The notes under the pieces were generated by a model. The model searched no databases, had not been told where the DNA came from, and saw only the letters and a program-made list of their open reading frames with translations. DNA of 45,520 nucleotides. It comes from Candidatus Magasanikiibacteriota bacterium. GTDB taxonomy: Bacteria > Patescibacteriota > Patescibacteriia > Magasanikbacterales > UBA10003. The position numbers were made by a program, and so were the translations under genes. Shown piece by piece: positions 18-38,986 of the stretch. Each line of letters begins with the position of its first letter. The first letter of the stretch is position 1. Where the stretch lies: contig JACROI010000021.1 of NCBI GenBank assembly GCA_016214465.1, forward strand, positions 1 through 45,520, given 5' to 3'.

Positions 18-2381
18 ATGAGCTCAAAAAAAATTAACAGACATCCAATCGTTAAAGGACTGGTTTTTTTTGGATTAGTTCTATTTACCATTTCCTTGTT
101 TTCTTTACCGGTAAAAGCCGGAGTTTTTGATGATATTCGCGACAGTGTCTCGCAAGTCGGTTCATATTTTTCCGAAGGCGAAAAAACTTTTAGTGACGCG
201 TCAGGTAAAATTGGCAACAGCGCGTTGAATGTTTGGCAGAAAATTGGTAATGGACTGGGAGAAGCAGCCGGATCGGTTGTTAAAAATACTTCACAGGCTA
301 GTAGCGCTTTTTTGGGTGGTATTAAGAATTTCGGTCAGACCGTTGGTGGTTTGGGCAATCAAGTTTCTAAAGGATATGACGCGACATTGGGTAAGGTGAA
401 ACAGGGGACTGATAAAGTTGCGGAGACGGTGATAAATGTTTTACCCAAGAAAAATGTTGTGAAAATCGCCGTGCCCAAGCAGGCAGTAAAAAAAGATATT
501 CAAAAATCAGAAGTGAAAGAAGACGCGGCGACATCAGCGTCGGCTTTGATTACAGTACAGCCGGAAGAAAATAAAAAACAATCCGCGCCGATCGCGCCAA
601 AAGAAATAATAATTTATTCCAACAAAGCGAATCAAAAAAGTGTTCAACCGTTGGTTGCTACTGTTGCCAAGGCCTCGTCGGCATCCGGCAATTCCGTTTT
701 TGAAACTATAAAATCCAATGGAGATATTTCTGTTGGTAATGATGTAAAGATAGACGCCGCCACGGGCATCGCGACATTGAAAGGTATAAAAATAATTGGC
801 ACCGTTGATTTTACCGGAGCGGATGTAAAAGGATTTAAACAAACAGTTGTTAATAATTATTCCGGCGCTTCCACTCCGTTGGTTGTTTATAATTCTTCAA
901 GCGGAAATTATGAAACCCGCACCAGCGTTTCCGGAAACTATGGCGGTGTGTCTGAACAATTTTCCGTGGGCAAGGATTTAACTGTCGGGCAGAATGCCAC
1001 GGTGGCGAGCGGCTTGACCATTGGCGCTACATCTGCTAATGGTAGTTTGACCGTTAATGGCGCCGCGGCTATCACTGGCGCGACAACTTTGTCCGGCGCC
1101 GCGACATTGAGCAGCAATTTGACTGTCAACGGTAACACGACACTAGGCGACACAGCTGGCGACACCATTACCATCAATGGTCGTCTTTCAACTTTGAATG
1201 TTTCTGATGGTTCCACCACATCTTCATTGGCAAAAAATAGTTTTTATATTGCGGCTGATTCTTCCAATGCTCTGGGGAAATTCTATGTTGACCTTTCCGG
1301 CAATGTCTCGGCTTCCGGCACCATCACTTCTTCCGGTGGTATTACCATGAGTGGACATCTTAATCCGTCATCTGATAATTTATATGATGTCGGTTCGTCT
1401 TCCACTCAATGGCGTTATGGAAATTTTCAGGGCGGTCTGCTGGTGGCGGACGGTTCCACCACTTCCACTTTATTGAATAATTCTTTAACTCTAGGTCAGG
1501 CCAGCGGCTATAATTTGGGCAAATTTTATATTGATTCCTCCGGCAATGTTTCTGCTTCCGGTACTTGGCAAGTGACCAATACCTCTACATTATATAAAGA
1601 TTTACTGGTGGGAGCGGCTTCTGAATCAATTGCCGATGCCGGTTTTATTTTTACCGGCAATGATGCCTATATAGAAGATCAATTAGGCGTTAATGGCACG
1701 GCTTGGTTTGATGGAAGCATTAGAGCTTCTTCTACCTTGTTGGCTACTGGTGCGGTTACTTTTTATGGTAACAGCACTTTTGGCGATGCGGTTGGCGATA
1801 CTATCAGCTTGAATGGCACTATCAATACAACTGTTCGTGCCTCCTCCACTCTCTTGGTTGGCACTGCCGCCGGCACGGATAATTTGTTTGTGAATGGAAA
1901 CAATACTTATGTAGCGACTTCCACTGCCGCCGGAACCGCGTATTCTTTAGTTGTTGGAAATGGAACAACCGGAGCGGTAATTGCCGGCGGACATATCAGC
2001 CCGAGCCATACCGGTTTGTTTGATTTAGGCAGAAATGGATTAGGATGGAATAATTTATTTACTTCATCTACTATTTACACCGGCGCTGGCGGCACATCTC
2101 TTTCAACTTTATCACCAAATATTTTAGCTTTCGCGGACCTTTGCTTCCGGGACTTTGCAAACCACCGGTTCCATGTTGACTTATGGCAATGTAACTTCCA
2201 CCGGAATAATTTATGCTTCTGGCGGATTGATTTCCAGTGCTTCTTCCAGTTTTGGTTCCAATGTCAATGTTTCCGGTGTTTTAAACGCTTCCGGCACTGT
2301 TTATCTTGGTGGCAATCTTTTAACCGGCACCGGCACTGGCAATTCTTTAGACATTGGCGCTCTCAACAATGCTTTCCGTGA
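18..2381 (+). CDS. Giant secreted repeat-rich surface protein, N-terminal segment (sensible reading ends near 2128-2140; the ORF tail is out of frame)
   Basis: ATG at 18 follows purine-rich agagagagag. Signal/anchor segment VFFGLVLFTISLFSLPVKA. G/S/T/N-rich degenerate repeats with recurring GKFY(V/I)D.SGNVSASGT. The last ~80 aa (CFRDFANHRFHVDLWQC...) are C/F/R/H/W-rich and unlike the rest. Confidence 0.7.
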   Translation: MSSKKINRHPIVKGLVFFGLVLFTISLFSLPVKAGVFDDIRDSVSQVGSYFSEGEKTFSDASGKIGNSALNVWQKIGNGLGEAAGSVVKNTSQASSAFLGGIKNFGQTVGGLGNQVSKGYDATLGKVKQGTDKVAETVINVLPKKNVVKIAVPKQAVKKDIQKSEVKEDAATSASALITVQPEENKKQSAPIAPKEIIIYSNKANQKSVQPLVATVAKASSASGNSVFETIKSNGDISVGNDVKIDAATGIATLKGIKIIGTVDFTGADVKGFKQTVVNNYSGASTPLVVYNSSSGNYETRTSVSGNYGGVSEQFSVGKDLTVGQNATVASGLTIGATSANGSLTVNGAAAITGATTLSGAATLSSNLTVNGNTTLGDTAGDTITINGRLSTLNVSDGSTTSSLAKNSFYIAADSSNALGKFYVDLSGNVSASGTITSSGGITMSGHLNPSSDNLYDVGSSSTQWRYGNFQGGLLVADGSTTSTLLNNSLTLGQASGYNLGKFYIDSSGNVSASGTWQVTNTSTLYKDLLVGAASESIADAGFIFTGNDAYIEDQLGVNGTAWFDGSIRASSTLLATGAVTFYGNSTFGDAVGDTISLNGTINTTVRASSTLLVGTAAGTDNLFVNGNNTYVATSTAAGTAYSLVVGNGTTGAVIAGGHISPSHTGLFDLGRNGLGWNNLFTSSTIYTGAGGTSLSTLSPNILAFADLCFRDFANHRFHVDLWQCNFHRNNLCFWRIDFQCFFQFWFQCQCFRCFKRFRHCLSWWQSFNRHRHWQFFRHWRSQQCFP

Positions 2382-4632
2382 TGTTTATGCTTCTTCTTCA
2401 ATCAATGTAGGTAATGGAGCGAATTCCAGCACTTTTAAAGGAAATTATTTAGCATTAACCAATGGGACGAGTTCTACCGTGTTTAATGGCAGTTCTTTGA
2501 CTTTGGGCCAGGGCACAAATTACAATTCCGGAATGTTTAATGTTAATTCTAATGGGAATGTGAACGCGTCAGGGACTATACAACTTGCTAAATTGGGAAC
2601 TTCCAGCGCTGGAGTTACAACTTACAATTCCCCCGATATTAATATCCAATCTTCTGCTTGGGATACCGATGGCTCGGAAGACACCTGGCAGTTTAAAATA
2701 AGGAATGCTCCTTCAAGTGCGGCGACTACAGTCGGAAATTTAAAATTTTTAGTACAAAAAAATGCAAATTCGGAAGCGATGGTGTTTTCTGCAGATAGCG
2801 CTGGAGCTTTTACAGCAGTCACATCATTAAATACTAACACCGGTATAGTCCAATCGAATAATACGTTAATGATAGTAAAGGGATGGGCGGCTGACGGGGG
2901 CACATCCGTCGGTGTGGCTTTGGACGCGGGAACTGCCTTTGTAAATGCTGGCGCAAAATTGGTTTCTATCAGAAACGCAGGAACAGAAAAAGCATATTTT
3001 AATGCCTCCGGCACACCTGCTTTTGGCATTCAGACTGGATATAATGATGGATTATTCAAGATAGATACCTCCGGCAATGTCTCTGCAACCGGCTCCCTCA
3101 AAACCTTTGGTAATGTTACTTCCACCGGCAATCTTTACGCTCTTACCAGCACTGCCAGCACTTCTATTTTAAATGGCAGTTCTTTGACTTTGGGCCAGGG
3201 CACTGCTTACAACTCCGGAATGTTTAATGTTGATTCTAATGGGAATGTGAGAACATCCGGCACTACTTTCCAAATGTATGACCCTAATTCAGGCCAATTG
3301 TCCGCTAACTTTAGTATAATCACTTCTGTGGGCGGCCCACCGGGGCAAAACTATGCATCCACGACTTTTAATTCACTAGTATATGACAGCGTTGGTTCTA
3401 CAGGTTTTGTTTTTAATACTTATGTAGGAGGAGAAGGAGGAGCCATGACTTCGGGCACTACACCCGGAGTGCCTGATACTGCCGCACCTGCTAAAGCTTT
3501 GGCTGTGTTTCAAAATAATGGCACTAACAAAGTTATAATTTCGGCTGGCGGCAATGTCTATGCGAAAAATAGTTTTATTGCTAACAGTACCACTTACAGC
3601 ATCGCTGATATGGCCGAGTACGTTAATTTAACTACTGGCGAAACCGGCGAGCCGGGTGATGTGCTAGTAGTGGATTTAGCCCATCCCAATCAATATAAAA
3701 AATCATCTTCCGCTTATTCCAAAGAGATTGCTGGCGTAATTTCCGATACCGGAGCGTTTTTGATGGGCGCCTCGGGTGAAGGCCGCGCTCCTTTGGCCTT
3801 GGCCGGTTTAGTTAAAACCAAAGTTACGGATGAAAATGGTCCGATTGCTGTTGGCGATTACTTGGTTTCCGCTTCCAAGCCAGGCTATGCTATGAAGTAT
3901 GATTCATCTTCCGGTAAATCGGCCGGGTTGGTTGGTATGGCATTGGAACCATTGGCTAACGGCGATGGCAAAATCACTATTATGGTGAATATGACTGTTG
4001 GTGAAAACGGCGATGGTACTTTGTCCGGTGGAGAGGATTGGGATGTTGGCGGAAAAAATATCTTAAATGTTAAATCAATCAGCGGCGCGAACGGGTTGTG
4101 GTATATTGATGAAAAAGGGTTCTTGATGGCTAAAGAAATCAAAGCCGATAAAGTGCAAGCCAAAAAATTCGTGGTGGAAAAAGAAACTAATTTGAAAAAA
4201 GCCAGCGTGGGCGAAGCCACCATTAGCCAAAATAATTCCAGTATAACGGTGGAGAATGAATTGATTACTTCAAAAGTTAAAATTTTCATTACTTTCCGTT
4301 CCAACCCGCAGTCATTTTGGTGGATTTCAAAACAAGAAGACGGTAAATTTGAAGTGTCTTTGAGCAAAGTGGCGGAAGTGGATTTGACATTTGATTATTG
4401 GATTGTGGGAGTGGAAGACGCGCCTGCATTAGAGACGAAATCCGCTCCAGCCGCGTCTGTTGCTCCGATTGAGACGCCGGTGGTGCCGGTTGTTGAATCT
4501 GCGCCAATTACTCCAATCGTTCCCGACACAGCATCCGCGTCAACAACCGTTGAAACACCGGCACCGGTTGCGCCAGTTGAATTAGCTCCGACAGAGTCAG
4601 CGTCGGTTTCCGATGAAGTTCCCAATCCTTAA
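2155..4632 (+). CDS. Giant surface protein, C-terminal segment in the +1 frame (tail-fibre/adhesin-like repeats, globular C-terminal domain, Pro/Ala/Val-rich tail)
   Basis: This frame is open from 2128 (TAG at 2125-2127) and continues the same repeat type (GNVTSTG, SSLTLGQGT.YNSGMFNV.SNGNV). It includes the block IADMAEYVNL...GEPGDVLVVD...IAGVISD...PLALAGLVKTKV...GPIAVGDYLVSASKPGYAMK. The track start at 2155 is a TTG. Confidence 0.7.
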   Translation: MQTTGSMLTYGNVTSTGIIYASGGLISSASSSFGSNVNVSGVLNASGTVYLGGNLLTGTGTGNSLDIGALNNAFRDVYASSSINVGNGANSSTFKGNYLALTNGTSSTVFNGSSLTLGQGTNYNSGMFNVNSNGNVNASGTIQLAKLGTSSAGVTTYNSPDINIQSSAWDTDGSEDTWQFKIRNAPSSAATTVGNLKFLVQKNANSEAMVFSADSAGAFTAVTSLNTNTGIVQSNNTLMIVKGWAADGGTSVGVALDAGTAFVNAGAKLVSIRNAGTEKAYFNASGTPAFGIQTGYNDGLFKIDTSGNVSATGSLKTFGNVTSTGNLYALTSTASTSILNGSSLTLGQGTAYNSGMFNVDSNGNVRTSGTTFQMYDPNSGQLSANFSIITSVGGPPGQNYASTTFNSLVYDSVGSTGFVFNTYVGGEGGAMTSGTTPGVPDTAAPAKALAVFQNNGTNKVIISAGGNVYAKNSFIANSTTYSIADMAEYVNLTTGETGEPGDVLVVDLAHPNQYKKSSSAYSKEIAGVISDTGAFLMGASGEGRAPLALAGLVKTKVTDENGPIAVGDYLVSASKPGYAMKYDSSSGKSAGLVGMALEPLANGDGKITIMVNMTVGENGDGTLSGGEDWDVGGKNILNVKSISGANGLWYIDEKGFLMAKEIKADKVQAKKFVVEKETNLKKASVGEATISQNNSSITVENELITSKVKIFITFRSNPQSFWWISKQEDGKFEVSLSKVAEVDLTFDYWIVGVEDAPALETKSAPAASVAPIETPVVPVVESAPITPIVPDTASASTTVETPAPVAPVELAPTESASVSDEVPNP

Positions 4633-6999: not shown

Positions 7000-8205
7000 T
7001 TGTATATGATATTTAAAAGTAAAAAAGTGCTTGTAGCCATTTCCGGCGGAGTGGATTCAGCGGTTGCCGCGGCTTTATTGCAAAAAGCCGGGTATGAAGT
7101 GACTGGCGCGTTTATGAAGTGCTATAGCGGTTCCATTCCTGGCGGTAAAGCGCCATGCTGGATTGAAGACCGGCGCGAAGCTCTGCGGGTGGCGGCAAAA
7201 CTCGGAATTAAGCTCCTAACTTTTGATTTTGAAAAAGAATATCATCGCGATGTGATTGATTATTTGTATAAAGAATATCGCGCCGGCCGCACGCCCAATC
7301 CTGATGTAATGTGCAATAAGTATGTTAAAATTCCGCTTTTGTTAAAAGCGGCTGAAAAACTGAGTTTTGATTATATCGCCACCGGGCATTATGCGCGTCT
7401 GTCTGTAAATTGTCATTGCGAGGAGCGAAGCGACGAAGCAATCTCGTATAAGCTTTTACAGGCAACAGACAAAAATAAAGATCAGACATATTTTTTACAT
7501 CAATTGGGACAAAAAGAATTGCGACGATTGATTTTTCCAATTGGCGAGTTGTGCAAAAATGAAGTTCGCGCGTTGGCCAAACAATTTGATTTGCCTGTAG
7601 CCGAGAGGGAAGAGAGTATGGGAATTTGTTTTGTGGGCGAGGTTCCGATGAAAGAATTTTTGCAAAAAAAAATCAAGCCGTGTCGCGGATCAGTGATTTT
7701 GAGCAATGGTGGAAAAGTCGGTGGACATGATGGATTGGCATTTTACACTATTGGAGAAAAATTTTCCTGTCATTCTAAGCGCCAGCGAAGAATCTCTGAT
7801 TATTGCACAATGGATTCTTCGGCTTTGCCTCAGAATGACAATAAGCGGGCGTTATATGTGGTAGACAAAGATATAAAACGCAATCGCCTTATCGTCGGCC
7901 TGGCCGATAACCCTCTATTGTTTAAGGAAAAAATACAAGTGAGTATGGTGAATTGGTTGGCTGGACAAGCGCCTAAATTTCCTTTATCATGTGAAGTGAG
8001 GTTGAGGCACCGTCAGTTGCTTCAAAAAGCCATTGTCAGAAATTTAAAGTCAAAAATTTTAGTGGAGTTTGAAGCGCCGCAGAGGGCTGTTACCCCGGGT
8101 CAGTTCGCGGTGTTTTATAAAGACTGTGAGTGTCTGGGGGGCGGAACAATACGAGATTGCCACGCCACGACGGATATTGGGGCTCGCAATGACAAAAACG
8201 ATTGA
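7000..8205 (+). CDS. mnmA: tRNA-specific 2-thiouridylase MnmA, with palindromic-element-derived insertions and C-terminal tail
   Basis: PP-loop VLVAISGGVDSAVAAALL. Also RTPNPDVMCN, IATGHYAR, KDQTYFL and PGQFAVFY..CLGGGTI. Confidence 0.9.
   Translation: MYMIFKSKKVLVAISGGVDSAVAAALLQKAGYEVTGAFMKCYSGSIPGGKAPCWIEDRREALRVAAKLGIKLLTFDFEKEYHRDVIDYLYKEYRAGRTPNPDVMCNKYVKIPLLLKAAEKLSFDYIATGHYARLSVNCHCEERSDEAISYKLLQATDKNKDQTYFLHQLGQKELRRLIFPIGELCKNEVRALAKQFDLPVAEREESMGICFVGEVPMKEFLQKKIKPCRGSVILSNGGKVGGHDGLAFYTIGEKFSCHSKRQRRISDYCTMDSSALPQNDNKRALYVVDKDIKRNRLIVGLADNPLLFKEKIQVSMVNWLAGQAPKFPLSCEVRLRHRQLLQKAIVRNLKSKILVEFEAPQRAVTPGQFAVFYKDCECLGGGTIRDCHATTDIGARNDKND
7411..7446 (+). repeat. P-family palindromic-element arm inserted in frame in mnmA (encodes CHCEERSDEAIS)
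   Basis: tgtcattgcgaggagcgaagcgacgaagcaatctc is the exact 35-nt reverse complement of the right arm of the 118-bp elements at 23762-23796 and 39053-39087. Confidence 0.85.
7768..7840 (+). repeat. P-family complete hairpin element inserted in frame in mnmA (encodes CHSKRQRRISDYCTMDSSALPQNDN)
   Basis: Arms are tgtcattctaagcgccagcgaagaatc (7768-7794) and gattcttcggctttgcctcagaatgaca (7813-7840), with complementary termini. Confidence 0.8.
8153..8194 (+). repeat. Degenerate P-family arm spanning the mnmA 3' end and the alaS start
   Basis: gagattgcc...ggctcgcaatgaca resembles the right-arm consensus gagattgcttcg...ctcgcaatgaca. It encodes the mnmA tail and contains the alaS ATG (8189-8191) within gcaATGaca. 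Confidence 0.65.
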
Positions 8206-10279
8206 AAATATGTTTTCTTATCACGACTTTCGGCAAAAATTTCTTGATTTTTTTCAAAGCAAAGGACATAAGATAATTTCCTCGGCTTCTTTGATTCCGG
8301 AAAATGATCCGACCGTGCTTTTCACCACTGCCGGCATGCACCCCTTGGTGCCGTATCTTTTGGGCGAAAAGCATCCGGAAGGGGCGCGTTTGACTAATGC
8401 GCAAAAGTGCTTGCGCACCGATGACATTGATGAAGTCGGGGACAGATGGCATTTGACCTTTTTTGAAATGCTTGGCAATTGGTCCTTGGGCTATGAAGGT
8501 GGAGAAGTCATTGCCAGCGGGCCTTACTGGAAAAATCAAGCGATTGAGTGGAGTTGGGAATTTTTAACAGATAAAAAATGGCTGGACTTGGATCCGCAGA
8601 AAATTTTTGTTTCTGTTTTTGCCGGAGACGAGCACGCGCCGCGCGATAATGAAGCAATTGAAATTTGGCAAGAAATTTTTGAACGCGCGGGCATTGATGC
8701 AAAAATTGGAGAAGGGGAGAGGATCGGTTTATACGGTCGTGCTAAAAATTGGTGGGGGCCGGCCGGGCAAACCGGGCCGTGCGGGCCTGATACCGAGATA
8801 TTTTATGATACTGGCAAAGAACACGATTCAAAATTCGGTGATAAATGTCATCAGAATTGCGATTGCGGCCGCTTTGCCGAGATTTGGAATAATGTTTTTA
8901 TGCAATATGCCAAAACATTTGACGGCGATTGCATTGAAATGACTTACAAAAATGTGGATACTGGAATGGGGTTGGAGCGGGTTTTGGCGATTTTAAATGA
9001 TAAGCAGAGTGTCTTTGAAATTGAAATTTTTTTACCCATCATTCGCAAGATTGAGGAATTGAGCGGTAAAAATTATACTGCTAATTTTGAAACTACCAAG
9101 GCCATCCGTATTATCGCCGACCATTTGCGCGCTGCCGTATTTATTTTAGGAGATGAGCGCGGCGTGGCGCCATCCAATATTGAGCAGGGATATATTTTAC
9201 GCCGATTGATTCGCCGCGCCATTCGTTTTGGCTATCAAATTGGAGTTAAAAAAGATTTTACAATGGAGATCGCGCGATTGGTAATGCAACTTTTTGGCCA
9301 ATTTTATCCGGAATTGGAAAAAAATCAACAAAGGATTTTTCAAGAATTATCAGCGGAAGAAAAAAAGTTTTCTCAAACGCTTTCCGCCGGTTTGAAAAAG
9401 ATTGAAATAATGGTGCGCAAAATTCATCGTTTGGAAAATGTTCTAACGCAGTTTAATGACGGGGATTTTGATGATGACGATGATCGTCAATTTGCGCAAT
9501 CAATTCTTAAAGATCCTTGGCTTGCTTCCGGAGATTTTTTACGGCGAATGTTGGAATTGAAAAATAAAGAAGAAATTAAGCGATTGGTTGCCGAGTTTGT
9601 TAAATTTTTCAAAATTTCCGGTAGTTTTGTTTTTGATCTTTATACTCAAGAAGGTTTTCCGCCAGAGATGATTAAAGAAGTAATGCTGTCGGTGGAACGG
9701 CCAATATTAAAATTTGAAACAATAAAATTGTCTTTGGATTTGGATTGGGATGGATTTAAAAAATTGTTCAAAGAACATCAGAATATTTCCCGCGCGGGCG
9801 CCGAACAAAAATTTAAAGGCGGTTTGATTGATACAAGCGATTTGGTGGCTAAATTGCACACTGCCACCCATCTTTTGCAAGCGGCTTTGCGCCAGGTCTT
9901 GGGCGTGGGAGTAATGCAAAAAGGCAGTAATATCACTGCCGAACGGTTGCGGTTTGATTTCAGTTGTCCTGAAAAAATGACCGCGGAGCAAATTAAACAA
10001 ACCGAGGACTTGGTTAATAATGTTATTGCTTCGGATTTACCGGTGAGATGTGAAGAAATGACTGTGGAAGAAGCGCAAAAAGCAGGCGCCATGGGTTTGT
10101 TTACAGCCAAGTATGGCGAAAGAGTAAGGGTCTACACTGTTGGTGATGATAAATACTTCAGCCGTGAGATTTGCGGCGGACCGCACGCTTCGCGCACCGG
10201 TGAACTCGGACATTTTATCATTATCAAAGAAGAGGCCTCCAGCGCCGGAGTCAGGCGCGTTAAAGCGATTTTGGAATAA
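8189..10279 (+). CDS. alaS: Alanine--tRNA ligase, short form ending after the editing domain
   Basis: FRQKFLDFFQSKGHKIISSASLIPENDPTVLFTTAGMHP. WGPAGQTGPCGPDTEIFYD. NVDTGMGLERV. Editing motifs HTATHLL and CGGPH. The protein ends ...SSAGVRRVKAILE. The ORF-track N-terminus from 8069 is read-through of mnmA in another frame. Confidence 0.9.
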   Translation: MTKTIENMFSYHDFRQKFLDFFQSKGHKIISSASLIPENDPTVLFTTAGMHPLVPYLLGEKHPEGARLTNAQKCLRTDDIDEVGDRWHLTFFEMLGNWSLGYEGGEVIASGPYWKNQAIEWSWEFLTDKKWLDLDPQKIFVSVFAGDEHAPRDNEAIEIWQEIFERAGIDAKIGEGERIGLYGRAKNWWGPAGQTGPCGPDTEIFYDTGKEHDSKFGDKCHQNCDCGRFAEIWNNVFMQYAKTFDGDCIEMTYKNVDTGMGLERVLAILNDKQSVFEIEIFLPIIRKIEELSGKNYTANFETTKAIRIIADHLRAAVFILGDERGVAPSNIEQGYILRRLIRRAIRFGYQIGVKKDFTMEIARLVMQLFGQFYPELEKNQQRIFQELSAEEKKFSQTLSAGLKKIEIMVRKIHRLENVLTQFNDGDFDDDDDRQFAQSILKDPWLASGDFLRRMLELKNKEEIKRLVAEFVKFFKISGSFVFDLYTQEGFPPEMIKEVMLSVERPILKFETIKLSLDLDWDGFKKLFKEHQNISRAGAEQKFKGGLIDTSDLVAKLHTATHLLQAALRQVLGVGVMQKGSNITAERLRFDFSCPEKMTAEQIKQTEDLVNNVIASDLPVRCEEMTVEEAQKAGAMGLFTAKYGERVRVYTVGDDKYFSREICGGPHASRTGELGHFIIIKEEASSAGVRRVKAILE

Positions 10280-14920: not shown

Positions 14921-14950
14921 TGTCATCCTGAGCGATAGCGAAGGATCTCG
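14921..14950 (+). repeat. P-family arm variant in the rpoA-rplQ spacer
   Basis: tgtcatcctgagcgatagcgaaggatctcg has the same TGTCAT...GGATC architecture as 27977-28002 and 27048-27071. Confidence 0.7.
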
Positions 14951-17771: not shown

Positions 17772-17785
17772 TAGATAATTTTATA

Positions 17786-17855
17786 GAGAAGCGCCTATAT
17801 CTTTTTTGCAGTCGCGGCGATAGTCCGCAGCAAAAAAAAGATATAGGCGCTTCTC
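17786..17855 (+). repeat. H-family 70-nt hairpin element (copy 1)
   Basis: Stem gagaagcgcctatatc pairs with gatataggcgcttctc. It encloses the conserved core ttttttgcagtcgcggcgatagtccgcagcaaaaaaaa. The left flank is attttatag, as in copy 2. Confidence 0.8.
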
Positions 17856-17866
17856 GTCAGTATTTT

Positions 17867-18925
17867 GTGACTTTAAAAAAAATACCCAAAATCTTTCTAA
17901 TTACACTTGAATTTCCTCCACAAATCGGCGGAGTGAGCCGGTATTATGACGGATTGGTAAAACATTGGAGCGGGGAAATCAAAGTAATGCCTGCCAATTT
18001 AAAATGTCCTTTGTGGCCGCATTGGCTGCCTTTGATTTGGCGTGTCGGCAAAATTGTTAAAAAAGAGAAAATTGAAATGCTTTGGGTCGGGCAAGTGTTA
18101 CCTGTTGGATATGTTGCTTTGTGGTTTAAAAGACGCAAGAAAGTTCCATATACGGTTTTTACGCACGGAATGGATATTTTAGTTCCGCAAAAATCGCGTT
18201 GGAAAAAATATTGGTTGAAAAAGATTTTATTCAACGCTGAATTGGTGGTGGCAAACAGCCAATTTACTCGTGGCGAATTAATTAAATTGGGGGTTGTGGA
18301 GTGGAGAATTATTGTAGTATATCCGTGTCCTGTGGAAATGAAAGATTCTTCACTCGCTTTGCTCCCTCAAAATGACATAGAGAAAATTATCCTCTCTGTC
18401 GGCCGGCTGGTTAAACGCAAAGGTTTTGATAAAGTAATTGATGTCATGCCGCGACTGCTCAAGCGCGTGCCTGATTTGAAATATGTGATTATTGGCAACG
18501 GACCGGAGATAGCGGCGTTGCAAAATCAAATAGCCGAGTTGGGATTGTCGGACAATGTGGAAATCTTGGAAAAAGTATACGATAAAGAATTGCAAGAGTG
18601 GTATAATAAATGCACGCTTTTTGCGCTTCCATGTCGTCAGATTGGGGTTGATGTTGAAGGTTTTGGCCTGGTATTTTTAGAAGCGGCTTTGGCTGGCAAA
18701 CCGGTGGTAGCTGGCAATAGCGGCGGCGCGCCGGAAACAATTCGTCACGGCTATGGCGGATTTGTGATTGAACCTGATTCACCGGACGAACTTTATCAGG
18801 CCTTGTTGAAAATTTTGACTGATGAACCGTTTGCGAATCGTTTGGGCGACTATGGTTGTGATTGGGTCAGTAGGAATTTTCAGTGGGAGAAAGAGATAGA
18901 AAAGTTGAAAGAGAAGATAAATTAA
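17867..18925 (+). CDS. Glycosyltransferase family 4 (GT-B, group 1)
   Basis: GTG start. GG..RY, SVGRLVKRKGFD, EGFGLVFLEAALAGKPVVAGNSGGAPE (E.7E region). Confidence 0.8.
   Translation: MTLKKIPKIFLITLEFPPQIGGVSRYYDGLVKHWSGEIKVMPANLKCPLWPHWLPLIWRVGKIVKKEKIEMLWVGQVLPVGYVALWFKRRKKVPYTVFTHGMDILVPQKSRWKKYWLKKILFNAELVVANSQFTRGELIKLGVVEWRIIVVYPCPVEMKDSSLALLPQNDIEKIILSVGRLVKRKGFDKVIDVMPRLLKRVPDLKYVIIGNGPEIAALQNQIAELGLSDNVEILEKVYDKELQEWYNKCTLFALPCRQIGVDVEGFGLVFLEAALAGKPVVAGNSGGAPETIRHGYGGFVIEPDSPDELYQALLKILTDEPFANRLGDYGCDWVSRNFQWEKEIEKLKEKIN
18343..18377 (+). repeat. P-family arm inserted in frame in the GT4 gene (encodes DSSLALLPQNDI)
   Basis: agattcttcactcgctttgctccctcaaaatgaca resembles gattcttcggctttgcctcagaatgaca (7813-7840). 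Confidence 0.65.
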
Positions 18926-21007: not shown

Positions 21008-21248
21008 TTTTTTTGGTTTTCCAGAAAAATAATTTTATTTTATTATCGCAATCAGCCTGCTTGACTTCGGAAAAAATTCGTTTGGCTTCTTGGACTCCGA
21101 TTCGTTTGATGGCGCCAAGATACATGCCAAAGCGGCCGCGTTCGCCGAAAAATGTGGAAATTTCATCGGCCAGATAATGAATTTCCGAATGAATATTTTT
21201 ATTTTTTTCCGGCAGTTTACTTTTTAGGATCTGGCCGATACCTTGCAT
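20976..21248 (-). CDS. Small hypothetical protein (90 aa)
   Basis: Open frame directly upstream of def, overlapping it by 32 nt. The composition looks coding (YLADEISTFFGERGRFGMYLGAIKRIGVQEAKRIFSEVKQ). I recognise no motif. Confidence 0.4.
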   Translation of the reverse strand: MQGIGQILKSKLPEKNKNIHSEIHYLADEISTFFGERGRFGMYLGAIKRIGVQEAKRIFSEVKQADCDNKIKLFFWKTKKNANIINSDNS

Positions 21249-21255
21249 ATGTTTA

Positions 21256-21405
21256 GCAGGCTCGGCAGATTATTTTTTTAGCTAGGATAAACTCGCCTGG
21301 CCTTTCAGGCCACCGGACTCGGCGTTCTCTACCTTAGCCATCGCAGAACGCCTCGTCCTGGCTCAAACATATCCTAGCTTCAAAAAATTATCTGCCTCCG
21401 CCTGC
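21256..21405. repeat. SE-family ~150-nt GC-rich structured palindromic element (copy 1)
   Basis: A long outer stem (gcaggc..ggcagat..agctaggata with tatcctagct..atctgcc..gcctgc) encloses hairpins ggcc-tttca-ggcc and ggcgttct-N16-agaacgcc. About 90% identical to the reverse complement of 37305-37455. Confidence 0.8.
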
Positions 21406-21412
21406 TTTAAAT

Positions 21413-23695: not shown

Positions 23696-23813
23696 AGACC
23701 GTCCAACAACTCGTTTTTTGTCATTGCGAGCGAAGCGAAGCAATCTCTTTTGGCTTAAAACGAGATTGCTTCGTCGCTTCGCTCCTCGCAATGACAGTTG
23801 TTGGACAGTCTGG
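23696..23813. repeat. 118-bp composite palindromic element (copy 1), in the spacer between two minus-strand genes
   Basis: Outer inverted repeat: gaccgtccaacaact with agttgttggacagtc. Inner P-family arms: tgtcattgcgagcgaagcgaagcaatctc and gagattgcttcgtcgcttcgctcctcgcaatgaca. Identical over 118 nt to 38987-39104. Confidence 0.9.
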
Positions 23814-24345: not shown

Positions 24346-26634
24346 TTAGATAAATGTTAATAATAATCTTCCAAATAAAAATATGGTGGCTCCGGCAAAC
24401 AGAATCGCGCTACCGGTGGCAGTGGTTGTGGCGACTTTTTTCTCCAGAGGGGCGATGGGCGATGGTGTTTCAGGAGGACTGTTAGTGATGTTTGCCATGG
24501 CTGGAGTTTCCGGTTGGCTTATTATTGTAGATTGCGCGGGTGCTGTCGGCGTGGGAGAAAGTTTTAATGGTTTAATTATATCAGGAACGGAACTTGAAGG
24601 CAAGGCGTTTTTTACAATTTCCTCTGCTGATGAAGTTGGCGTCAGCGCGATTATTTCAATCGGTTCTGAAATAACAGGCAAGGTTGACGATGTCATTGCC
24701 AGAGTAGAAGTCGCGGTAATTGGCAAAGTTGATGTGGCAGTTGAAGATGCTGTTTCAATAGGGGTAGATAAAATACTGCCCACACTCCCACCCACGCCGC
24801 CAGAATTCGCTGGAGCAGGTGTTGGTTGCGGTTTTGGAGTTAAAATTATCGGCCACGATTTTCCCAGTAACGCAGGCACGGCGTGTTTTGTGCCAAACCA
24901 ATCAACTATGCCCGGTGCCCAAGCCGACTCGTAATAACCGTCGGTTTTTAATTGCTCGGTCAAAACCGACCATGGATTCTTGTTTTGACTGTTAGTCCAA
25001 TCAGTTTGTCCTTCATTTAAAGAATTTACGCCCATCATGGCCCAGCCTGTGGTAAGCGGGTCAGAAACGCCAAAGCCCCAGCCGCCGTCAGCTAGTTGTT
25101 GTGATTTTAAATAGGCCTTGGCTTTGGTAAAGATATTTTGGTCAATTGTCGCGCCTTTATTTTTGGCATATTGCAGAGCGTTCACAGCCGCGCCGGTAAT
25201 ATCAGCTGAAGCCCAGCCGGCCCAAGTAAAAGCGCCGTCCGCGGTTTGGTCTGCAATAATTGTGGCCAAAATATCATTGGCAATCAATTCGTTCGCCGGC
25301 GTATCAGTCGCAAGTAAAGCGAAGAGCGCAAAAACATCATCATTAATTCCATTCAATCCGTATTTGTTGTTTTTATAGCACTCTGCGCTTTTGATTTTTG
25401 AGATTAAATTTTGGACGGTGTTATCCGAGCCGGCCATGCCCGAAGCAAGAAATGCCAAAGTATGCCGTGGATAACTGGCGCATAGATTTAGCAAATCGCT
25501 TTCATCAGTAAAATTATATCCTTTGGCAAAATTTAATAATGATGTACTGCTGGCGGCGATTTCGTCGGCGTATTGATTATTGGCGCCAAAAGACATTATT
25601 GCCCAGTCGGTAATACTGGCATCAATTATTTTTCCATCCGCGCTTTGTTGTGTTTTTAAAAAATTAAGAATTGATTGGGTTTTGGCCGCGATATCCGCTG
25701 ATGAAATTGTCGGAGTGGGAGTTAATGAACCACCGCCTCCGCCACCACCTGTATTGGTGTCGGTTTCAGGTGTGCTCGTGGCCGTGGAGGTTGGAGTTTC
25801 AGGAGCCGGGAGCACTGTGAGAGTTATGGGCCAGCTCCATTTGGAATAATCTGTCGAGGTGATTTTTGCAAAATAGGTGCCAGTGGCGGAAAAAGCGTAT
25901 TCAACAGTGCCAGAGGCATTGGTGGCGAGGGTTGTTGTGGTGATAGTCGTGTCCCACCAGCCAGTTTGGTTTGGATTGGGGATGCTGATGTCAACAGTGT
26001 CATTGCGGTCAAGTGTCCATTCATCGTCCAGATTGTCGTAATTGTATCGCCAAGTTTGCAAAGTGGTGGTAGTGTTTATTGGAAAAGTACTGGTAGTTGC
26101 GGTGATTTTCCAAGAATCGTCAAAGTAAATGTAAACAGTGTCGTTATTTTGCAAACCGTATGAATCCATGCCGATGCTTGGGTATGATCCATTAACAGAA
26201 TAATTCCAATTGCCGCAGGCCGAAGTGCTCGTTGGCGCGGTAATGACAAGGCAGTTAAGGTAGAAACTTTGATAGGCGTCGTAGTAATCAAGTTGGGAGA
26301 TTGAAAAATTGTCCGAAAGCGCGTCAGCCTCTGTTAGAATTGTGAGCGGGCTGGATGAGGCGTTGACAGAGTGGCTTCCGGCAGTGTCCATAAGTGAGCT
26401 GGTGGCAGTGGAGGTTACTGCGCCGGAAAACAGAAAAGAATCTTGGTAGCGGAGAAAAAAGTTGATAGAGAGGCCCGGTGTACTCGTGGCAGTTGAAGTT
26501 GCTATTTCTTGTGTCGGGATTGTAATTTCAGGCGTGCTGGTAGTTTCTTCGGCCTGAACCGGTCTGGCGGAGAAGAATATTAAGACAATTGTCATTCCAA
26601 TGAAAATTGGAATCTTAAAATTTCGCATTTTCAT
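24346..26634 (-). CDS. Surface-anchored multidomain protein: signal peptide, DUF4430-like domain, beta-rich module, prenyltransferase/terpene-cyclase-like alpha/alpha toroid, Pro/Thr stalk, C-terminal TM anchor
   Basis: Signal peptide IFIGMTIVLIFFSARPVQA. DUF4430 signature ACGNWNYSVNGSYPSIGMDSYGLQNNDTVYIYF. A Gly7 linker. Toroid repeats QQSADGKI, DQTADGAFTW, QQLADGGWGF. C-terminal anchor GSAILFAGATIFLFGRLLLTFI. Confidence 0.7.
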   Translation of the reverse strand: MKMRNFKIPIFIGMTIVLIFFSARPVQAEETTSTPEITIPTQEIATSTATSTPGLSINFFLRYQDSFLFSGAVTSTATSSLMDTAGSHSVNASSSPLTILTEADALSDNFSISQLDYYDAYQSFYLNCLVITAPTSTSACGNWNYSVNGSYPSIGMDSYGLQNNDTVYIYFDDSWKITATTSTFPINTTTTLQTWRYNYDNLDDEWTLDRNDTVDISIPNPNQTGWWDTTITTTTLATNASGTVEYAFSATGTYFAKITSTDYSKWSWPITLTVLPAPETPTSTATSTPETDTNTGGGGGGGSLTPTPTISSADIAAKTQSILNFLKTQQSADGKIIDASITDWAIMSFGANNQYADEIAASSTSLLNFAKGYNFTDESDLLNLCASYPRHTLAFLASGMAGSDNTVQNLISKIKSAECYKNNKYGLNGINDDVFALFALLATDTPANELIANDILATIIADQTADGAFTWAGWASADITGAAVNALQYAKNKGATIDQNIFTKAKAYLKSQQLADGGWGFGVSDPLTTGWAMMGVNSLNEGQTDWTNSQNKNPWSVLTEQLKTDGYYESAWAPGIVDWFGTKHAVPALLGKSWPIILTPKPQPTPAPANSGGVGGSVGSILSTPIETASSTATSTLPITATSTLAMTSSTLPVISEPIEIIALTPTSSAEEIVKNALPSSSVPDIIKPLKLSPTPTAPAQSTIISQPETPAMANITNSPPETPSPIAPLEKKVATTTATGSAILFAGATIFLFGRLLLTFI
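26590..26614. repeat. Short hairpin with P-family-like termini at the junction of two operon genes
   Basis: tgtcattccaatgaaaattggaatc has the same TGTCATTCC-hairpin-GGAATC frame as 27262-27287. It encodes part of the signal peptide (KIPIFIGMT). Confidence 0.45.
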
Positions 26635-27253
26635 AGCGCCAAGTGATTATATCGTTATGATTAAGTTTAATGTAGGAGACGCCTAATTTGGCCGCTTGAC
26701 CATTGATGTAGTAAATCCAGTAAAGATTTGATTTGGAATCGTTGGTTAAGTTGTCAATCGTTTCCACAAACGCGCCCAAGCTACTGAATTGGGAGAATTT
26801 AATGGGGATTTGCTCTTGCAGTTGTTGCATGGCTTCGTAAACTGTGCTTTGTGGTGCAACTTTGATTGGAAATTCTTTATTGAACGTGGGCGCGATGAAT
26901 TTGAAAGTGACAGAGATACTATTTTCATCAGGTTTTTCAATTGGTGTTACATTGGAAATTGCGTCAGCCACAAAAGAAGTCGCGGAAATTGGTTGTTTAT
27001 TTTTTTCAGAGTCATTGCGAGGCGCAGCCGAAGCAATCTCGTTTTTATCATCCCGAGCGGAGCGAAGGATATTTTGCGAAATTGTCCCAGTAGCAAAAGA
27101 ATCCGTGGATTTCATCTCCGCTGTTTTTGTTGATGTGTTTTGAATCGTCTGTTTATCCAGATTATTCAGCCAAATCATACTCCAAATCAAAAGCAGGCCG
27201 GACAGCGCCCATAGGCCAAAGTGGTGGGTATGTTTTTTAACAAAATGTTTCAT
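26615..27253 (-). CDS. Membrane-anchored DUF4430 (transcobalamin beta-domain-like) protein, first gene after the riboswitch
   Basis: Start chosen at ATG 27253 (MKHFVKK...); the track start at 27292 is a TTG inside a repeat hairpin. TM anchor FGLWALSGLLLIWSMIWL. C-terminus SNLYWIYYINGQAAKLGVSYIKLNHNDIITWRYE. Confidence 0.7.
   Translation of the reverse strand: MKHFVKKHTHHFGLWALSGLLLIWSMIWLNNLDKQTIQNTSTKTAEMKSTDSFATGTISQNILRSARDDKNEIASAAPRNDSEKNKQPISATSFVADAISNVTPIEKPDENSISVTFKFIAPTFNKEFPIKVAPQSTVYEAMQQLQEQIPIKFSQFSSLGAFVETIDNLTNDSKSNLYWIYYINGQAAKLGVSYIKLNHNDIITWRYENAKF
27011..27071. repeat. Two tandem P-family arms inserted in frame in the DUF4430 gene (encode SARDDKNEIASAAPRNDS on the minus strand)
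   Basis: gtcattgcgaggcgcagccgaagcaatctcg followed by tcatcccgagcggagcgaaggata. Confidence 0.7.
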
Positions 27254-27261
27254 AGTTTTTT

Positions 27262-27287
27262 TGTCATTCCCGCGAAAGCGGGAATCC
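27262..27287. repeat. P-family-related short hairpin in the 5' UTR of the operon
   Basis: tgtcattcccgcgaaagcgggaatcc, with stem attcccgc / gcgggaat. Confidence 0.6.
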
Positions 27288-27300
27288 AGCAATATATTTA

Positions 27301-27333
27301 AAAACTCTTTTCCGGCAAAAAGAAAAGAGTTGT
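27301..27333 (-). terminator. Intrinsic terminator forming the riboswitch expression platform
   Basis: Minus-strand RNA AACUCUUUUC-uuuuugccg-GAAAAGAGUU followed by UUAAAU. Confidence 0.6.
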
Positions 27334-27367
27334 CCTTTTCTCCTGCTCGGGAGTTGGTGTATGTGGA

Positions 27368-27464
27368 TAACTTTTAAACAAAGTTCCGGCTGGCCCCTGT
27401 GTGTGGGGGTTCACGGTTGCGGCACAGTGGGGGATTTGCGCCCCTCTTCCATGCTTAAAAGTTA
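27368..27464 (-). promoter_or_regulatory. Cobalamin riboswitch aptamer (compact, class-II-like)
   Basis: Minus-strand RNA: UAACUUUUAAGCAUGGAAGAGGGGCGCAAAUCCCCCACUGUGCCGCAACCGUGAACCCCCACACACAGGGGCCAGCCGGAACUUUGUUUAAAAGUUA. It has a GGAAG + GGGG-CGCAAAU-CCCC hairpin, a C.G..CCGC.AC.GU.A junction, a B12-box-like GCCAGCCGGAAC and a 10-bp P1. Confidence 0.75.
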
Positions 27465-27492
27465 GGTGTGGATAAGTTTTAATGGTGATTTT

Positions 27493-27565: not shown

Positions 27566-28885
27566 ATGGTAATTTTAGGAATAAAAATTGACAATTTTTC
27601 AAAATCGGAAATTTTAGCTAAAATTAGCGAATTTTTGCGTTTGGGTGCCGGACATTTTATTACCACTCCAAATCCGGAAATGCTGGTTGATGTGGAATAT
27701 GATTGGTTTTTCAAGCAGGCCTTGAATAAGGCGGAAATGGCAGTGGCAGATGGGTTTGGTTTGCCTCTTGCAGCGCGATATTTATATGGCGAAAAACTAA
27801 CTCGTTGGGCCGGTATTGATTTGATGGAGAAAATTTGTGAAATTGCCGCCGAGCAGAAAAAAAGCGTGTATTTGATTGGCGGAAAAGAGGGGATTGCGGC
27901 CAAAGCGGCCGAAAAATTGCAAAAAAAATTTTTTGGGTTGAAAGTTGTTGGAGCGGAGAGTGGGATTGTGTTTGAATGTCATCCCGAGCGAAGCGAGGGA
28001 TCTTTGCATACCAATATTCTCAAAGATTCTTCGCCACGTTTGGACTGGGCTCAGAATGACAACGGCGAGTATCTTACAGGTTTAAATTTTAATGTTGCTG
28101 AGAATAATAAATTATTGGAACGCATCCGCGCCGCTACTCCAGATATTCTTTTTGTGGCTTTTGGTCATGGCAAACAGGAAAAATGGTTGGCGGAATTTTT
28201 ATCACAATTGCCATTAGTAAAAATTGGCATGGGAGTGGGCGGGGCTTTTGATTATATTTCCGGCCAAGTTTTGCGCGCGCCGAAATTTGTGCGTCAGCTC
28301 GGATTTGAATGGTTGTGGCGTTTGTTGAATCAGCCATGGCGGATAAAACGAATTTGGAAAGCAGTTGTGTCTTTTGGTTTGTTGGTGAAAGATTACAAAA
28401 TACAAATTGCCATGCCTTATCGCCAAGGAGTAATCGGATTTATTGTAAATAGGGAAGGAAAATTTTTTATCGCCAAACGTTGTCCAATGCCAACTGATTC
28501 ATATTTTTTTAATATTGAGCACTGGCAGCCGCCGCAAGGTGGAATCAGCGTTGACGAAACGGCCGAACAGGCGATTTTGAAAGAAGTGCGAGAGGAAACC
28601 GGAATGACAGCCGAGATTGTGGCGCGTTGTGTTGATGTTTGTAAATATGACTGGAGTATTGCCTTTATGAAGAAGAAAGGCAAGGGTTATCATTTCAGGG
28701 GTCAACAAAAATCAGTTTTTCTGCTAAAATACAATGGTGACGGCAGTGACATCAAAGTGGATAAAATTGAGCTGTGCGGTTACCGTTGGGTGGATTTGGA
28801 AGAACTGAAAAAAATAATTCATCCGATGCGCCGGCCGTCTTTAGAAATTTTATTAAATGAAATTAAATTTCGAGATATTTTATAG
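27566..28885 (+). CDS. WecG/TagA/CpsF-family (GT26) glycosyltransferase fused in frame to an RppH-like Nudix hydrolase
   Basis: N-terminal ILGIKIDNFSKSEILAKI, TPNPEMLV, IGGKEGIA, PDILFVAFGHGKQEKW, APKF....GFEWLWRL..P.R. From M283 (28412): YRQGVIGFIV, WQPPQGGISVDETAEQAILKEVREETGM (Nudix box). Confidence 0.75.
   Translation: MVILGIKIDNFSKSEILAKISEFLRLGAGHFITTPNPEMLVDVEYDWFFKQALNKAEMAVADGFGLPLAARYLYGEKLTRWAGIDLMEKICEIAAEQKKSVYLIGGKEGIAAKAAEKLQKKFFGLKVVGAESGIVFECHPERSEGSLHTNILKDSSPRLDWAQNDNGEYLTGLNFNVAENNKLLERIRAATPDILFVAFGHGKQEKWLAEFLSQLPLVKIGMGVGGAFDYISGQVLRAPKFVRQLGFEWLWRLLNQPWRIKRIWKAVVSFGLLVKDYKIQIAMPYRQGVIGFIVNREGKFFIAKRCPMPTDSYFFNIEHWQPPQGGISVDETAEQAILKEVREETGMTAEIVARCVDVCKYDWSIAFMKKKGKGYHFRGQQKSVFLLKYNGDGSDIKVDKIELCGYRWVDLEELKKIIHPMRRPSLEILLNEIKFRDIL
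27977..28061 (+). repeat. P-family element (two arms plus spacer) inserted in frame in the GT26 domain (encodes CHPERSEGSLHTNILKDSSPRLDWAQNDN)
   Basis: Arms tgtcatcccgagcgaagcgagggatc (27977-28002) and gattcttcgccacgtttggactgggctcagaatgaca (28025-28061). Confidence 0.75.
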
Positions 28886-28954
28886 GGACGTTCTAATTTC
28901 TTTTTTGCAGTCGTGGCGACAGTCCGCAGCAAGAAAAAGAAATTGGAACGTCCC
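28885..28954 (+). repeat. H-family 70-nt hairpin element (copy 2)
   Basis: Stem gggacgttctaatttc pairs with gaaattggaacgtccc and encloses ttttttgcagtcgtggcgacagtccgcagcaagaaaaa. The left flank is attttatag. Confidence 0.8.
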
Positions 28955-28962
28955 AACCTGAT

Positions 28963-38955: not shown

Positions 38956-38986
38956 AGAAAATGATTTGTTAGCTTGTCATTGCGAC

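Follow-up and report, generated by a model that had tools for sequence, protein, structure and literature searches.

In-frame insertions of CGTC/TGTC-type hairpin repeats, putatively linked to Ssn-like GIY-YIG nucleases, in the mnmA gene of a Magasanikbacteria-like genome

The repetitive extragenic palindromic (REP) sequences of bacteria fall into two superfamilies, one GTAG tagged and the other CGTC tagged (Di Nocera, De Gregorio & Rocco 2013, BMC Genomics 14:522; PMC3733652). In the CGTC REPs, whose tag is often TGTC (variants TGTC and CCTC), a stem of 8 to 9 bp that nearly always opens with complementary A-T encloses a loop of 4 to 5 nucleotides (nt) and is followed by an unpaired tail of three nt with the consensus CCA; inverted dimers predominate, and no associated transposase was found (PMC3733652). 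That survey equates CGTC-1 of Neisseria with dRS3 and CGTC-1 and CGTC-4 of Rickettsia conorii with the Rickettsia palindromic elements (RPEs) RPE-6 and RPE-4, respectively, sets RPE-1 apart as "longer palindromic insertions," and records intragenic CGTC copies coding for 20 to 30 amino acids (aa), including some in tRNA synthetase and pseudouridine synthase genes (PMC3733652). A second study (Nat Commun 2025;16:2388; PMC11893778) described a 28-nt hairpin, NTS (CGTCATTCCCGCGMAVGCGGGAATCYRG), and related SRM hairpins that flank the gene for a ~94-aa single-domain GIY-YIG nuclease, Ssn, which cleaves beside the hairpin and acts on single-stranded DNA (ssDNA) only. The NTS-ssnA-NTS arrangement was likened to an insertion sequence, dRS3 was noted as a known phage recombinase target, and a role in Neisseria transformation was reported, with no mention of in-frame or intragenic copies (PMC11893778). 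The REP/REPIN-RAYT systems (Nunvar 2010; Bertels & Rainey 2011; Ton-Hoang 2012) follow the same logic: their hairpins are short and tagged, probably move as inverted doublets, and flank the gene for a small ssDNA-specific enzyme. Here we analyze a 45,520-nt stretch (positions 1 to 45,520 of contig JACROI010000021.1, GenBank assembly GCA_016214465.1; hereafter, the window), a housekeeping region with 42% G+C from a Candidatus Magasanikbacteria-like genome of the Patescibacteria, or candidate phyla radiation (CPR), in which TGTC-tagged units are inserted in frame in mnmA, the gene for tRNA 2-thiouridine synthase.

The repeats in mnmA are a clear further example of the phenomenon described for the CGTC/TGTC REP superfamily. 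The open reading frame (ORF) in question recovers MnmA proteins from the Protein Data Bank (PDB; E = 1e-76) and contains the Pfam domains PF03054, PF20259, and PF20258. The gene and the units within it are as follows.

7006 to 8205, plus strand: mnmA, tRNA 2-thiouridine synthase, 399 aa, ORF intact, three repeat-derived segments inside.
7411 to 7445, plus strand: site 1, a single unit TGTC-ATTGC-GAGGAGCGAAGCGACGAA-GCAAT-CTC, translated as CHCEERSDEAIS; net gain of 27 nt relative to orthologues.
7768 to 7796, plus strand: left unit of site 2, TGTC-ATTCT-AAGCGCCAGCGA-AGAAT-CTC, translated as CHSKRQRRIS.
7811 to 7840, minus strand: right unit of site 2, inverted, TGTC-ATTCT-GAGGCAAAGCCGA-AGAAT-CCA; the plus strand reads DSSALPQNDN.
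8153 to 8194, minus strand: site 3, a unit at the junction of the mnmA stop and the alaS start; the stop codon is lost and MnmA is extended by 16 aa (DCHATTDIGARNDKND).

The 35-mer of site 1 (TGTCATTGCGAGGAGCGAAGCGACGAAGCAATCTC) recurs exactly on the minus strand at 23762 to 23796 and 39053 to 39087, where 100 shuffles gave an expectation of 0 copies. Site 2 is a tag-outward inverted doublet (TGTCATTCTAAGCGCCAGCGAAGAATC ... GATTCTTCGGCTTTGCCTCAGAATGACA; 7768 to 7840, net gain of 45 nt) that codes for CHSKRQRRISDYCTMDSSALPQNDN within the ORF and folds as ssDNA at -15.6 kcal/mol (z = -4.3 against shuffles). Site 3 supplies the last 16 codons of the gene (C-terminal tail RDCHATTDIGARNDKND; net gain of 48 nt): in orthologues the mnmA stop overlaps the alaS ATG or lies within a few nt of it, and with the unit in place the ORF runs on for 16 codons and ends in a TGA located four bases upstream of 8210, the position of the alaS start in orthologues. 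The junction peptides predicted for the inserts include LSVNCHCEER and ISDYCTMDSSALPQNDNK. A first-pass annotation made from the letters alone had taken two stretches of mnmA for repeat copies rather than MnmA sequence, one of them a hairpin element at 7768 to 7840, and had held that both keep the frame. The exact 35-mer, the inverted doublet, and the intact 399-aa ORF all bear this out. The same annotation overlooked the third unit at 8153 to 8194 and regarded each arm as half an element, which must be corrected because every arm is a complete unit with a 5-bp stem of its own.

The ATGACA end of the site-3 unit (8189 to 8212) also places an ATG in frame with alaS, seven codons upstream of 8210 (MTKTIEN+MFSYHDF). 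Start codons can thus come from repeat ends, as the site-3 unit shows for alaS and a unit at 26590 to 26616 (see below) shows for the gene that follows it.

Comparison with orthologues shows that the copies in mnmA entered after the split from the nearest sequenced relatives, and they occupy two surface loops and the stop codon. The three closest orthologues (P0003, P0004, and P0005; 352 to 356 aa), which share the TPR-mnmA-alaS neighborhood of the window and are 72 to 73% identical to its MnmA by BLASTP over ~95% of the query (75 to 77% in a MAFFT alignment), are without all three segments. Another ortholog (P0002, from locus L004; 73% identical) is without sites 1 and 3 and has only the right arm of site 2, which occupies the corresponding codons (DSSASPQNDN versus DSSALPQNDN in the window) and shows two synonymous changes and one nonsynonymous change. 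The insertion of this arm therefore predates the split of these two lineages, and its frame has been maintained since. In the codon alignment, 17 codons stand in place of 8 original ones at site 1 and 30 in place of 15 at site 2, and neither target-site duplications nor a common target sequence is evident at the three empty sites; because the net gains differ from the unit lengths and duplications are lacking, original bases were also removed at each event. A 21-kb syntenic stretch of the nearest relative, Magasanikbacteria GW2011_GWC2_41_17, contains no unit, versus six in the matching part of the window, and hence the expansion of the units in the lineage of the window is recent. We also considered that the segments might be ancestral, lineage-specific MnmA loops that resemble the repeat by chance and were lost in relatives, as might be suggested by the many patescibacterial MnmA proteins with extra residues at exactly both loops and by the right arm in P0002. 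This is highly unlikely, since site 1 matches two intergenic copies at 35 of 35 nt although the gene is only ~73 to 77% identical in protein, the three closest orthologues are without every segment, and the inserts of other lineages differ in subtype and frame (SFPRRRESS, VIPAKAGIQ, CHSERSEES). As a separate feature of the family, an N-terminal HD-domain fusion (PF01966, ~200 extra residues) is present in the Magasanikbacteria MnmA proteins P0002, P0007, P0010, P0012, P0014, P0017, and P0019, and the window MnmA is without it.

Structural modeling shows a predicted MnmA whose fold and catalytic motifs are left intact by the inserts, with the reading frame kept. The AlphaFold model, computed with 113 homologues as input, has a predicted local distance difference test (pLDDT) score of 90.1, and Foldseek aligns it with 2HMA, 2DER, 2DET, and 2DEU at target-normalized template-modeling (TM) scores of 0.89 to 0.92. 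In the model, site 1 forms the tip of a longer beta-hairpin (strands E130-136 and E146-152; pLDDT of ~85) and site 2 lies in a loop of low confidence; the only poorly predicted parts are inserts, namely, residues 257 to 264 in this loop and residues 388 to 399 in the C-terminal tail (both with pLDDT of <50). The PP-loop SGGVDS and the catalytic cysteines, Cys103 and Cys208, occupy invariant alignment columns. If mnmA were instead under inactivation, the inserts would mark a decaying gene whose frame has stayed open by chance, a reading to which one might refer the start of site 2 right after the conserved TIGQR motif, with about nine original codons replaced, and the lysine found in place of the near-invariant Arg252. 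Such decay is improbable in view of an intact 1.2-kb ORF that keeps its invariant catalytic columns and a confident fold outside the inserts, of nine intragenic units in four genes of the window that are all in frame and stop-free, and of a site-2 arm that persists in frame in a lineage with a 73% identical protein. CPR genomes are, moreover, streamlined, and dead genes are rarely kept in them.

The junctions are present in metagenomic data from groundwater. Logan contigs of run X1, in which the genome has a word depth of ~75x, cover 7150 to 7436, 7419 to 7989, and 7960 to 8305, i.e., every junction, with 0 differences at depths of 66 to 77x. The contig graph of this run breaks within the site-1 unit, and the summed word depth of the unit reaches ~114,570x versus ~75x for the genome, from which it follows that the unit is highly abundant in that groundwater community. 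Hundreds of contigs with unrelated flanks begin at 7410 to 7412 or finish at 7443 to 7445, which bounds the mobile unit to 7411 to 7445. The graph break and the extreme depth might raise the suspicion of an assembly artifact in mnmA, either a chimeric join caused by the repeat or a collapsed repeat placed there in error. Contigs at genome depth and without differences nevertheless enter site 1 from both sides and cross sites 2 and 3, the flanks are consecutive in-frame parts of one gene when set against orthologues, and no empty-site joint in mnmA was reported in runs X1 to X3, so that an artifact is hardly credible.

The same two loops have been occupied repeatedly. Of 113 patescibacterial MnmA proteins, site 1 is longer by 8 or more residues in 41 and site 2 in 45. 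About 20 of the site-2 inserts, judged by eye (14 by a crude regular expression), correspond to TGTC units translated in one frame or another (e.g., CHSERSEES...RSFAGTQDDN, VIPAKAGIQ, and SFRAESRNP), with SFPRRRESS and VIPSEPKGRRG as examples at site 1. At the DNA level, site 1 of locus L214 contains an NTS-type unit and its site 2 an ATTCT plus ATCCT doublet, and locus L213 has a doublet at site 2. Peptides thus do occur at these positions in unrelated lineages, but the units behind them differ in subtype and frame from the window copies, which indicates independent events at the same loops. Other low-complexity peptides (IRNPKSEIRNKSQ.., FRISNFKFQNK.., and QISNDKCQIK) lie in the same two loops of P0022, P0081, P0083, P0091, P0116, P0119, and others, and their sequences suggest a second repeat family using the same tolerant MnmA sites.

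A census of the window recovered 16 units with the layout TGTC, AT-N3, loop, N3'-AT, and C-T/C. Of these, mnmA holds four, a DUF4430 gene and a WecG-NUDIX gene two each, a GT4 glycosyltransferase gene and the rpoA-rplQ spacer one each, and two 118-nt composites four in all, with the remaining two in a 5' leader and at a gene junction; thus, 9 of the 16 are inside ORFs, and 8 form four tag-outward doublets. The tag is TGTC in 13 of the 15 units found by the strict scan and AGTC in the other two, and a relaxed-tag copy at 27047 has TATC. All units start their stem with AT, and the first and second stem pairs are A-U and U-A in each of 13 distinct units, across which the 5-bp stem is 98.5% paired. 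The stems comprise the types ATTGC/GCAAT, ATTCT/AGAAT, ATCCT/AGGAT, ATCCC/GGGAT, ATTCCCGC/GCGGGAAT, and ATTCCAAT/ATTGGAAT; pairs 3 to 5 (three of the five) show compensatory changes on both sides, and the observed score was reached by none of 500 shuffles and was far worse in slid registers. A 5-bp stem with an 11- to 25-nt loop, mostly of the GA-rich form GAG...CGA(A) and often with a GCGAAGC core, characterizes 14 of the 16 units; only those at 27262 and 26590 have an 8-bp stem with a GAAA loop. As ssDNA, the doublets and the units with 8-bp stems fold far better than shuffles, with z scores from -3.1 to -8.9.

In their unpaired tag and A-T stem start, in their occurrence as singletons and inverted dimers, in their dispersal mostly near gene ends, with some intragenic copies in tRNA-related enzymes, and in having no adjoining transposase, the window units agree with the CGTC/TGTC REPs. 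A short tail is conserved in them, though mostly as CTC or CTT (CCA is restricted to the units at 27262 and 7811). They differ from the CGTC REPs in their host, since the Patescibacteria lie outside the five phyla surveyed for CGTC repeats. With NTS and SRM they share the layout GTCAT-stem-loop-stem-ATC; the mnmA units have this GTCAT...ATC frame with longer loops, and the long-loop ATTGC units fall outside the SRM pattern. From the REP/REPIN-RAYT systems they are separated by a TGTC rather than a GTAG tag and by a link to a GIY-YIG nuclease gene rather than to an HUH Y1 transposase. Rfam searches of the whole window at the gathering threshold and of the doublet at an E-value threshold gave only the adenosylcobalamin (AdoCbl) riboswitch and subthreshold matches to generic microRNA hairpins, so that no RNA family applies to the units. 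Could the inserts be removed after transcription or translation, in the manner of a mini-intron or an intein, so that mature MnmA is canonical? The strong or potential hairpins would suit such a mechanism, and insertions in CPR rRNA genes are known (PMC11270868). Yet the pieces measure only 35 to 73 nt, are without intein or intron motifs and without an Rfam family, and excision would not explain why all intragenic copies are stop-free and in frame; we give this mechanism almost no credence.

The likeness to RPEs (Ogata et al. 2000, 2002) extends to in-frame palindromes in conserved housekeeping genes, to tolerated surface sites, and to the occasional presence of more than one element per gene. 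Classic RPE-1 is ~100 to 150 bp long. The window elements are 35-nt units or 73- to 85-nt doublets and hence shorter than RPE-1, which is confined to Rickettsia, whereas the sequence type of the window is common to many phyla. The first-pass annotation had drawn the comparison with RPEs and had listed in-frame copies in other genes; the latter are indeed found in the GT4 (18342 to 18377), WecG/GT26 (27977 to 28061), and DUF4430 (27010 to 27077) genes, and the former turns out to be more than an analogy, as PMC3733652 places RPE-4 and RPE-6 among the CGTC-tagged REPs, in one superfamily with the window units. Its statement that the repeat lacks a formal description does not stand for the superfamily (PMC3733652, PMC11893778); for the Patescibacteria and for the long-loop ATTGC variant, literature searches found no description, and those on typical repeat peptides and on Patescibacteria with REP found nothing. 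Three features seem to be undescribed so far: the occurrence of the units in the CPR, the pairing of a GIY-YIG clade with long-loop ATTGC units as its cognate flanks, and the repeated use of the same two MnmA loops.

The units outside mnmA are distributed in the window as follows.

14921 to 14949, plus strand: single unit with an ATCCT/AGGAT stem in the rpoA-rplQ spacer; the syntenic spacer of locus L002 is without it.
18342 to 18377, minus strand: unit in the GT4 glycosyltransferase gene, translated as DSSLALLPQNDI, in the linker between two Rossmann domains.
23696 to 23813, unstranded: 118-nt intergenic composite with units at 23719 to 23747 (plus) and 23762 to 23796 (minus), a tag-outward doublet with outer inverted flanks.
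26590 to 26616, plus strand: unit with an 8-bp stem and a GAAA loop at the junction of the DUF4430 gene stop and the next gene start.
27010 to 27077, plus strand: two tandem units in the DUF4430 gene (itself on the minus strand), translated as ILRSARDDK and EIASAAPRNDS.
27262 to 27289, plus strand: extragenic unit TGTCATTCCCGCGAAAGCGGGAATCCAG, a 27/28 match to the Neisseria NTS; fold of -9.0 kcal/mol, z = -4.2.
27977 to 28061, unstranded: tag-outward doublet in the WecG-NUDIX gene, in the part coding for the WecG/TagA domain, where it lies in a clean insertion of 40 aa; fold z = -3.1.
38987 to 39104, unstranded: second copy of the 118-nt composite doublet, 100% identical to the first.

The composite at 23696 to 23813 has the strongest fold (-33.2 kcal/mol, z = -8.9). 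A truncated unit (TTGTCATTGCGAC, 38975 to 38987) abuts the left end of the second composite and looks like the remnant of an earlier or nested insertion. The DUF4430 units are placed between an N-terminal hydrophobic segment and the DUF4430 domain. For the WecG doublet, the TagA structure (7MPK) aligns at residues 6 to 137 with residues 3 to 134 of the WecG query and at 138 to 239 with 175 to 278, leaving nothing opposite 135 to 174, and Pfam likewise divides the WecG domain into two stretches; the WecG-NUDIX protein of L127, considered as an empty-site reference, was dropped in favor of this structure alignment since it is only 39% identical and aligns unreliably there. The nine intragenic units use two frames: the three sense copies read TGT-CAT as C-H-x, the six antisense copies read xAT-GAC-Ax as N/D-D-x, and all of the peptides are hydrophilic. 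This pattern, seen post hoc in a small sample, fits selection for sequence tolerated at the protein surface. On the mRNA strand, the hairpin at 27262 to 27289 lies between the AdoCbl riboswitch (Rfam RF01482, 54 bits; 27330 to 27477) and the DUF4430 ATG (27252), inside the expression platform of the riboswitch.

Beyond the window, the pattern TGTCATTGCGAG-N4-30-GCAATCTC occurs in at least 120 contigs from >15 phyla among the matches listed, which include Chloroflexota, Bacteroidota, Planctomycetota, Firmicutes, Proteobacteria (including Rickettsiales), Nitrospirota, Patescibacteria, and others. In two of these, from Oscillospiraceae (L027) and from the CPR lineage Falkowbacteria (L048), a small GIY-YIG ORF is located between inverted units. 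A protein search recovered 2,934 relatives of ~98 aa with a single GIY-YIG domain (PF01541), many of them from Patescibacteria, and in the CPR contigs L127 to L132 units flank the gene. The upstream unit of L129 to L132 (TGTCATTGCGAGAAGCGAAGCGACGAAGCAATCTC) is one base off the site-1 unit of mnmA; downstream of the gene, the unit is of the ATTGC type and inverted, and its loop differs. Across many phyla, 57 of 80 Ssn-like GIY-YIG genes (71%) have a correctly oriented GTCAT-tagged unit no more than 160 nt away, and 31 of the 80 (39%) are flanked in this way on both sides, where the background is 0.06 per flank; the values in the Ssn study are close to these, at 71% and 42%, respectively (PMC11893778). 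The ATTGC stem is found in 95 of the 101 flanking units, and in Chryseobacterium the unit upstream (L146) or downstream (L160) of the gene equals the site-1 copy of mnmA through tag, stem, and loop. The unit-ssn-unit cassette is located between pheS and pheT in L129 to L132 (2001 to 2297) and right after pheT in L048 (2547 to 3022), and the Phe-tRNA synthetase neighborhood may be a recurrent location for it. In L048, the unit-flanked ssn-like gene is split at 2700 to 2860 by a ~160-nt palindromic element of another family.

On the whole, the segments are probably best explained as CGTC/TGTC-type hairpin repeats, putatively Ssn linked, that were inserted into mnmA, filtered by selection, and translated as near-neutral extensions. 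The units would be the cognate ssDNA hairpins of a small Ssn-like GIY-YIG nuclease and would spread as singletons or as tag-outward doublets, the latter resembling unit-ssn-unit cassettes minus the gene. They could land anywhere, with selection purging frame shifts, stop codons, and hits on structured parts of proteins, so that the intragenic survivors would be stop-free, hydrophilic, a net multiple of three in length, and confined to loops, linkers, or termini, where the inserted codons would be translated as neutral or near-neutral loop extensions. We infer the translation, the neutrality, and the Ssn-driven mobility of the inserts from sequence evidence.

Several observations weigh against this explanation. 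No ssn or other GIY-YIG gene was recovered in the window by regular expression, phmmer, or domain scans; nor did regular expression and phmmer searches find a GIY-YIG ORF in the syntenic loci L001 to L006. The CPR GIY-YIG proteins gave no hits in NCBIfam or PDB, and their kinship to SsnA of N. meningitidis (cd10448) is putative. Ssn is known only to cut, not to transpose (PMC11893778). The published SRM pattern, HGTCWYN(0-2)YYVSBRHN(0-5)WNVSBRGN(0-2)RNCYNB, fits 1 of the 16 units (27262 to 27289) and none of those in mnmA, and most window units depart from the CGTC REPs in having a 5-bp stem and a GAG...CGAA-rich loop of 11 to 25 nt versus 8 to 9 bp and 4 to 5 nt. Single long-loop units fold no better than shuffles under nearest-neighbor DNA parameters (z = +1.0, +0.1, and +1.0), and hence covariation is the sole evidence for their stem, in a unit set part of which was chosen with a complementarity filter (the TCATNNNGAG search ignored the 3' half). 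The net length changes that differ from the unit lengths, together with the missing target-site duplications, call for extra deletions or a replacement mechanism, and a search for RNA sequencing runs containing the window sequence found none.

The mobilizing enzyme could also be other than Ssn, namely, a tyrosine transposase of the RAYT/IS200-IS605 type or a tyrosine recombinase of the dRS3 type, or recombination or gene conversion could act alone. The cutting-only record of Ssn, the missing dedicated transposase of the CGTC REPs (PMC3733652), and the phage recombinase that targets dRS3 (PMC11893778) all leave room for this, as does an XerC/D-like recombinase gene in the window at 32084 to 33022. 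The product of this gene has a Phage_integrase domain and a SAM-like N domain and is probably a housekeeping enzyme. Mobilization of the RAYT/IS200 type was set aside, as the tag is TGTC rather than GTAG, a scan of 36 window ORFs turned up no Y1 transposase domain, and the gene flanked elsewhere codes for a GIY-YIG protein. The association with this GIY-YIG gene is strong, oriented, and two-sided, and another mobilizer is unlikely overall.

The window holds further repeats that are distinct from the TGTC units. One of ~150 nt is present in two inverted copies 16 kb apart (21245 to 21410 and 37300 to 37460), each by a gene end and with a 104-nt core that is 92% identical; it matched no family in Rfam (the best was RtT at 20.9 bits versus a threshold of 45) and could represent either a further mobile repeat or a structured RNA. 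The Polysacc_synt and WecG-NUDIX genes are each followed, right behind the stop codon, by a copy of another hairpin family unrelated to the units (17778 to 17855 and 28863 to 28976). It has a perfect 22-bp stem in the first copy (17786 to 17807 paired with 17834 to 17855), to which the other copy is 83% identical, and is either terminator-like or another small repeat. The two large ORFs at 18 to 4632 (787 and 825 aa) have internal direct repeats that code for ...SGNVSASG-like motifs and no Pfam domain above threshold, and they probably encode repetitive surface proteins.

The in-frame colonization of genes by palindromes, best known from Rickettsia, thus also occurs in the CPR, where four genes in 45 kb are affected and mnmA has been hit three times. 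Peptides such as CHSERSEES, VIPAKAGIQ, SFPRRRESS, and ..AQNDN in CPR proteins are accordingly to be read as repeat-derived loop inserts and not as features of the respective families, and the repeat breaks short-read assemblies within genes. A 35-nt hairpin whose core is identical from Chryseobacterium to groundwater CPR is tied to a clade of small GIY-YIG nucleases, which makes this clade a testable candidate for the mover of CGTC-type REPs and of RPE-4 and RPE-6. It is conceivable, and we offer it tentatively as the less probable case, that the unit-ssn-unit cassettes are active mobile elements in the CPR, that their hairpins, moved on ssDNA by a 98-aa GIY-YIG nuclease, are a pan-bacterial source of RPE-like in-frame insertions by which the same surface loops of housekeeping enzymes are remodeled again and again, and that the recurrence in the MnmA loops reflects target preference plus selection. 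If this is true, the orphan CGTC REPs and RPE-4 and RPE-6 would gain their missing mobilizing enzyme.

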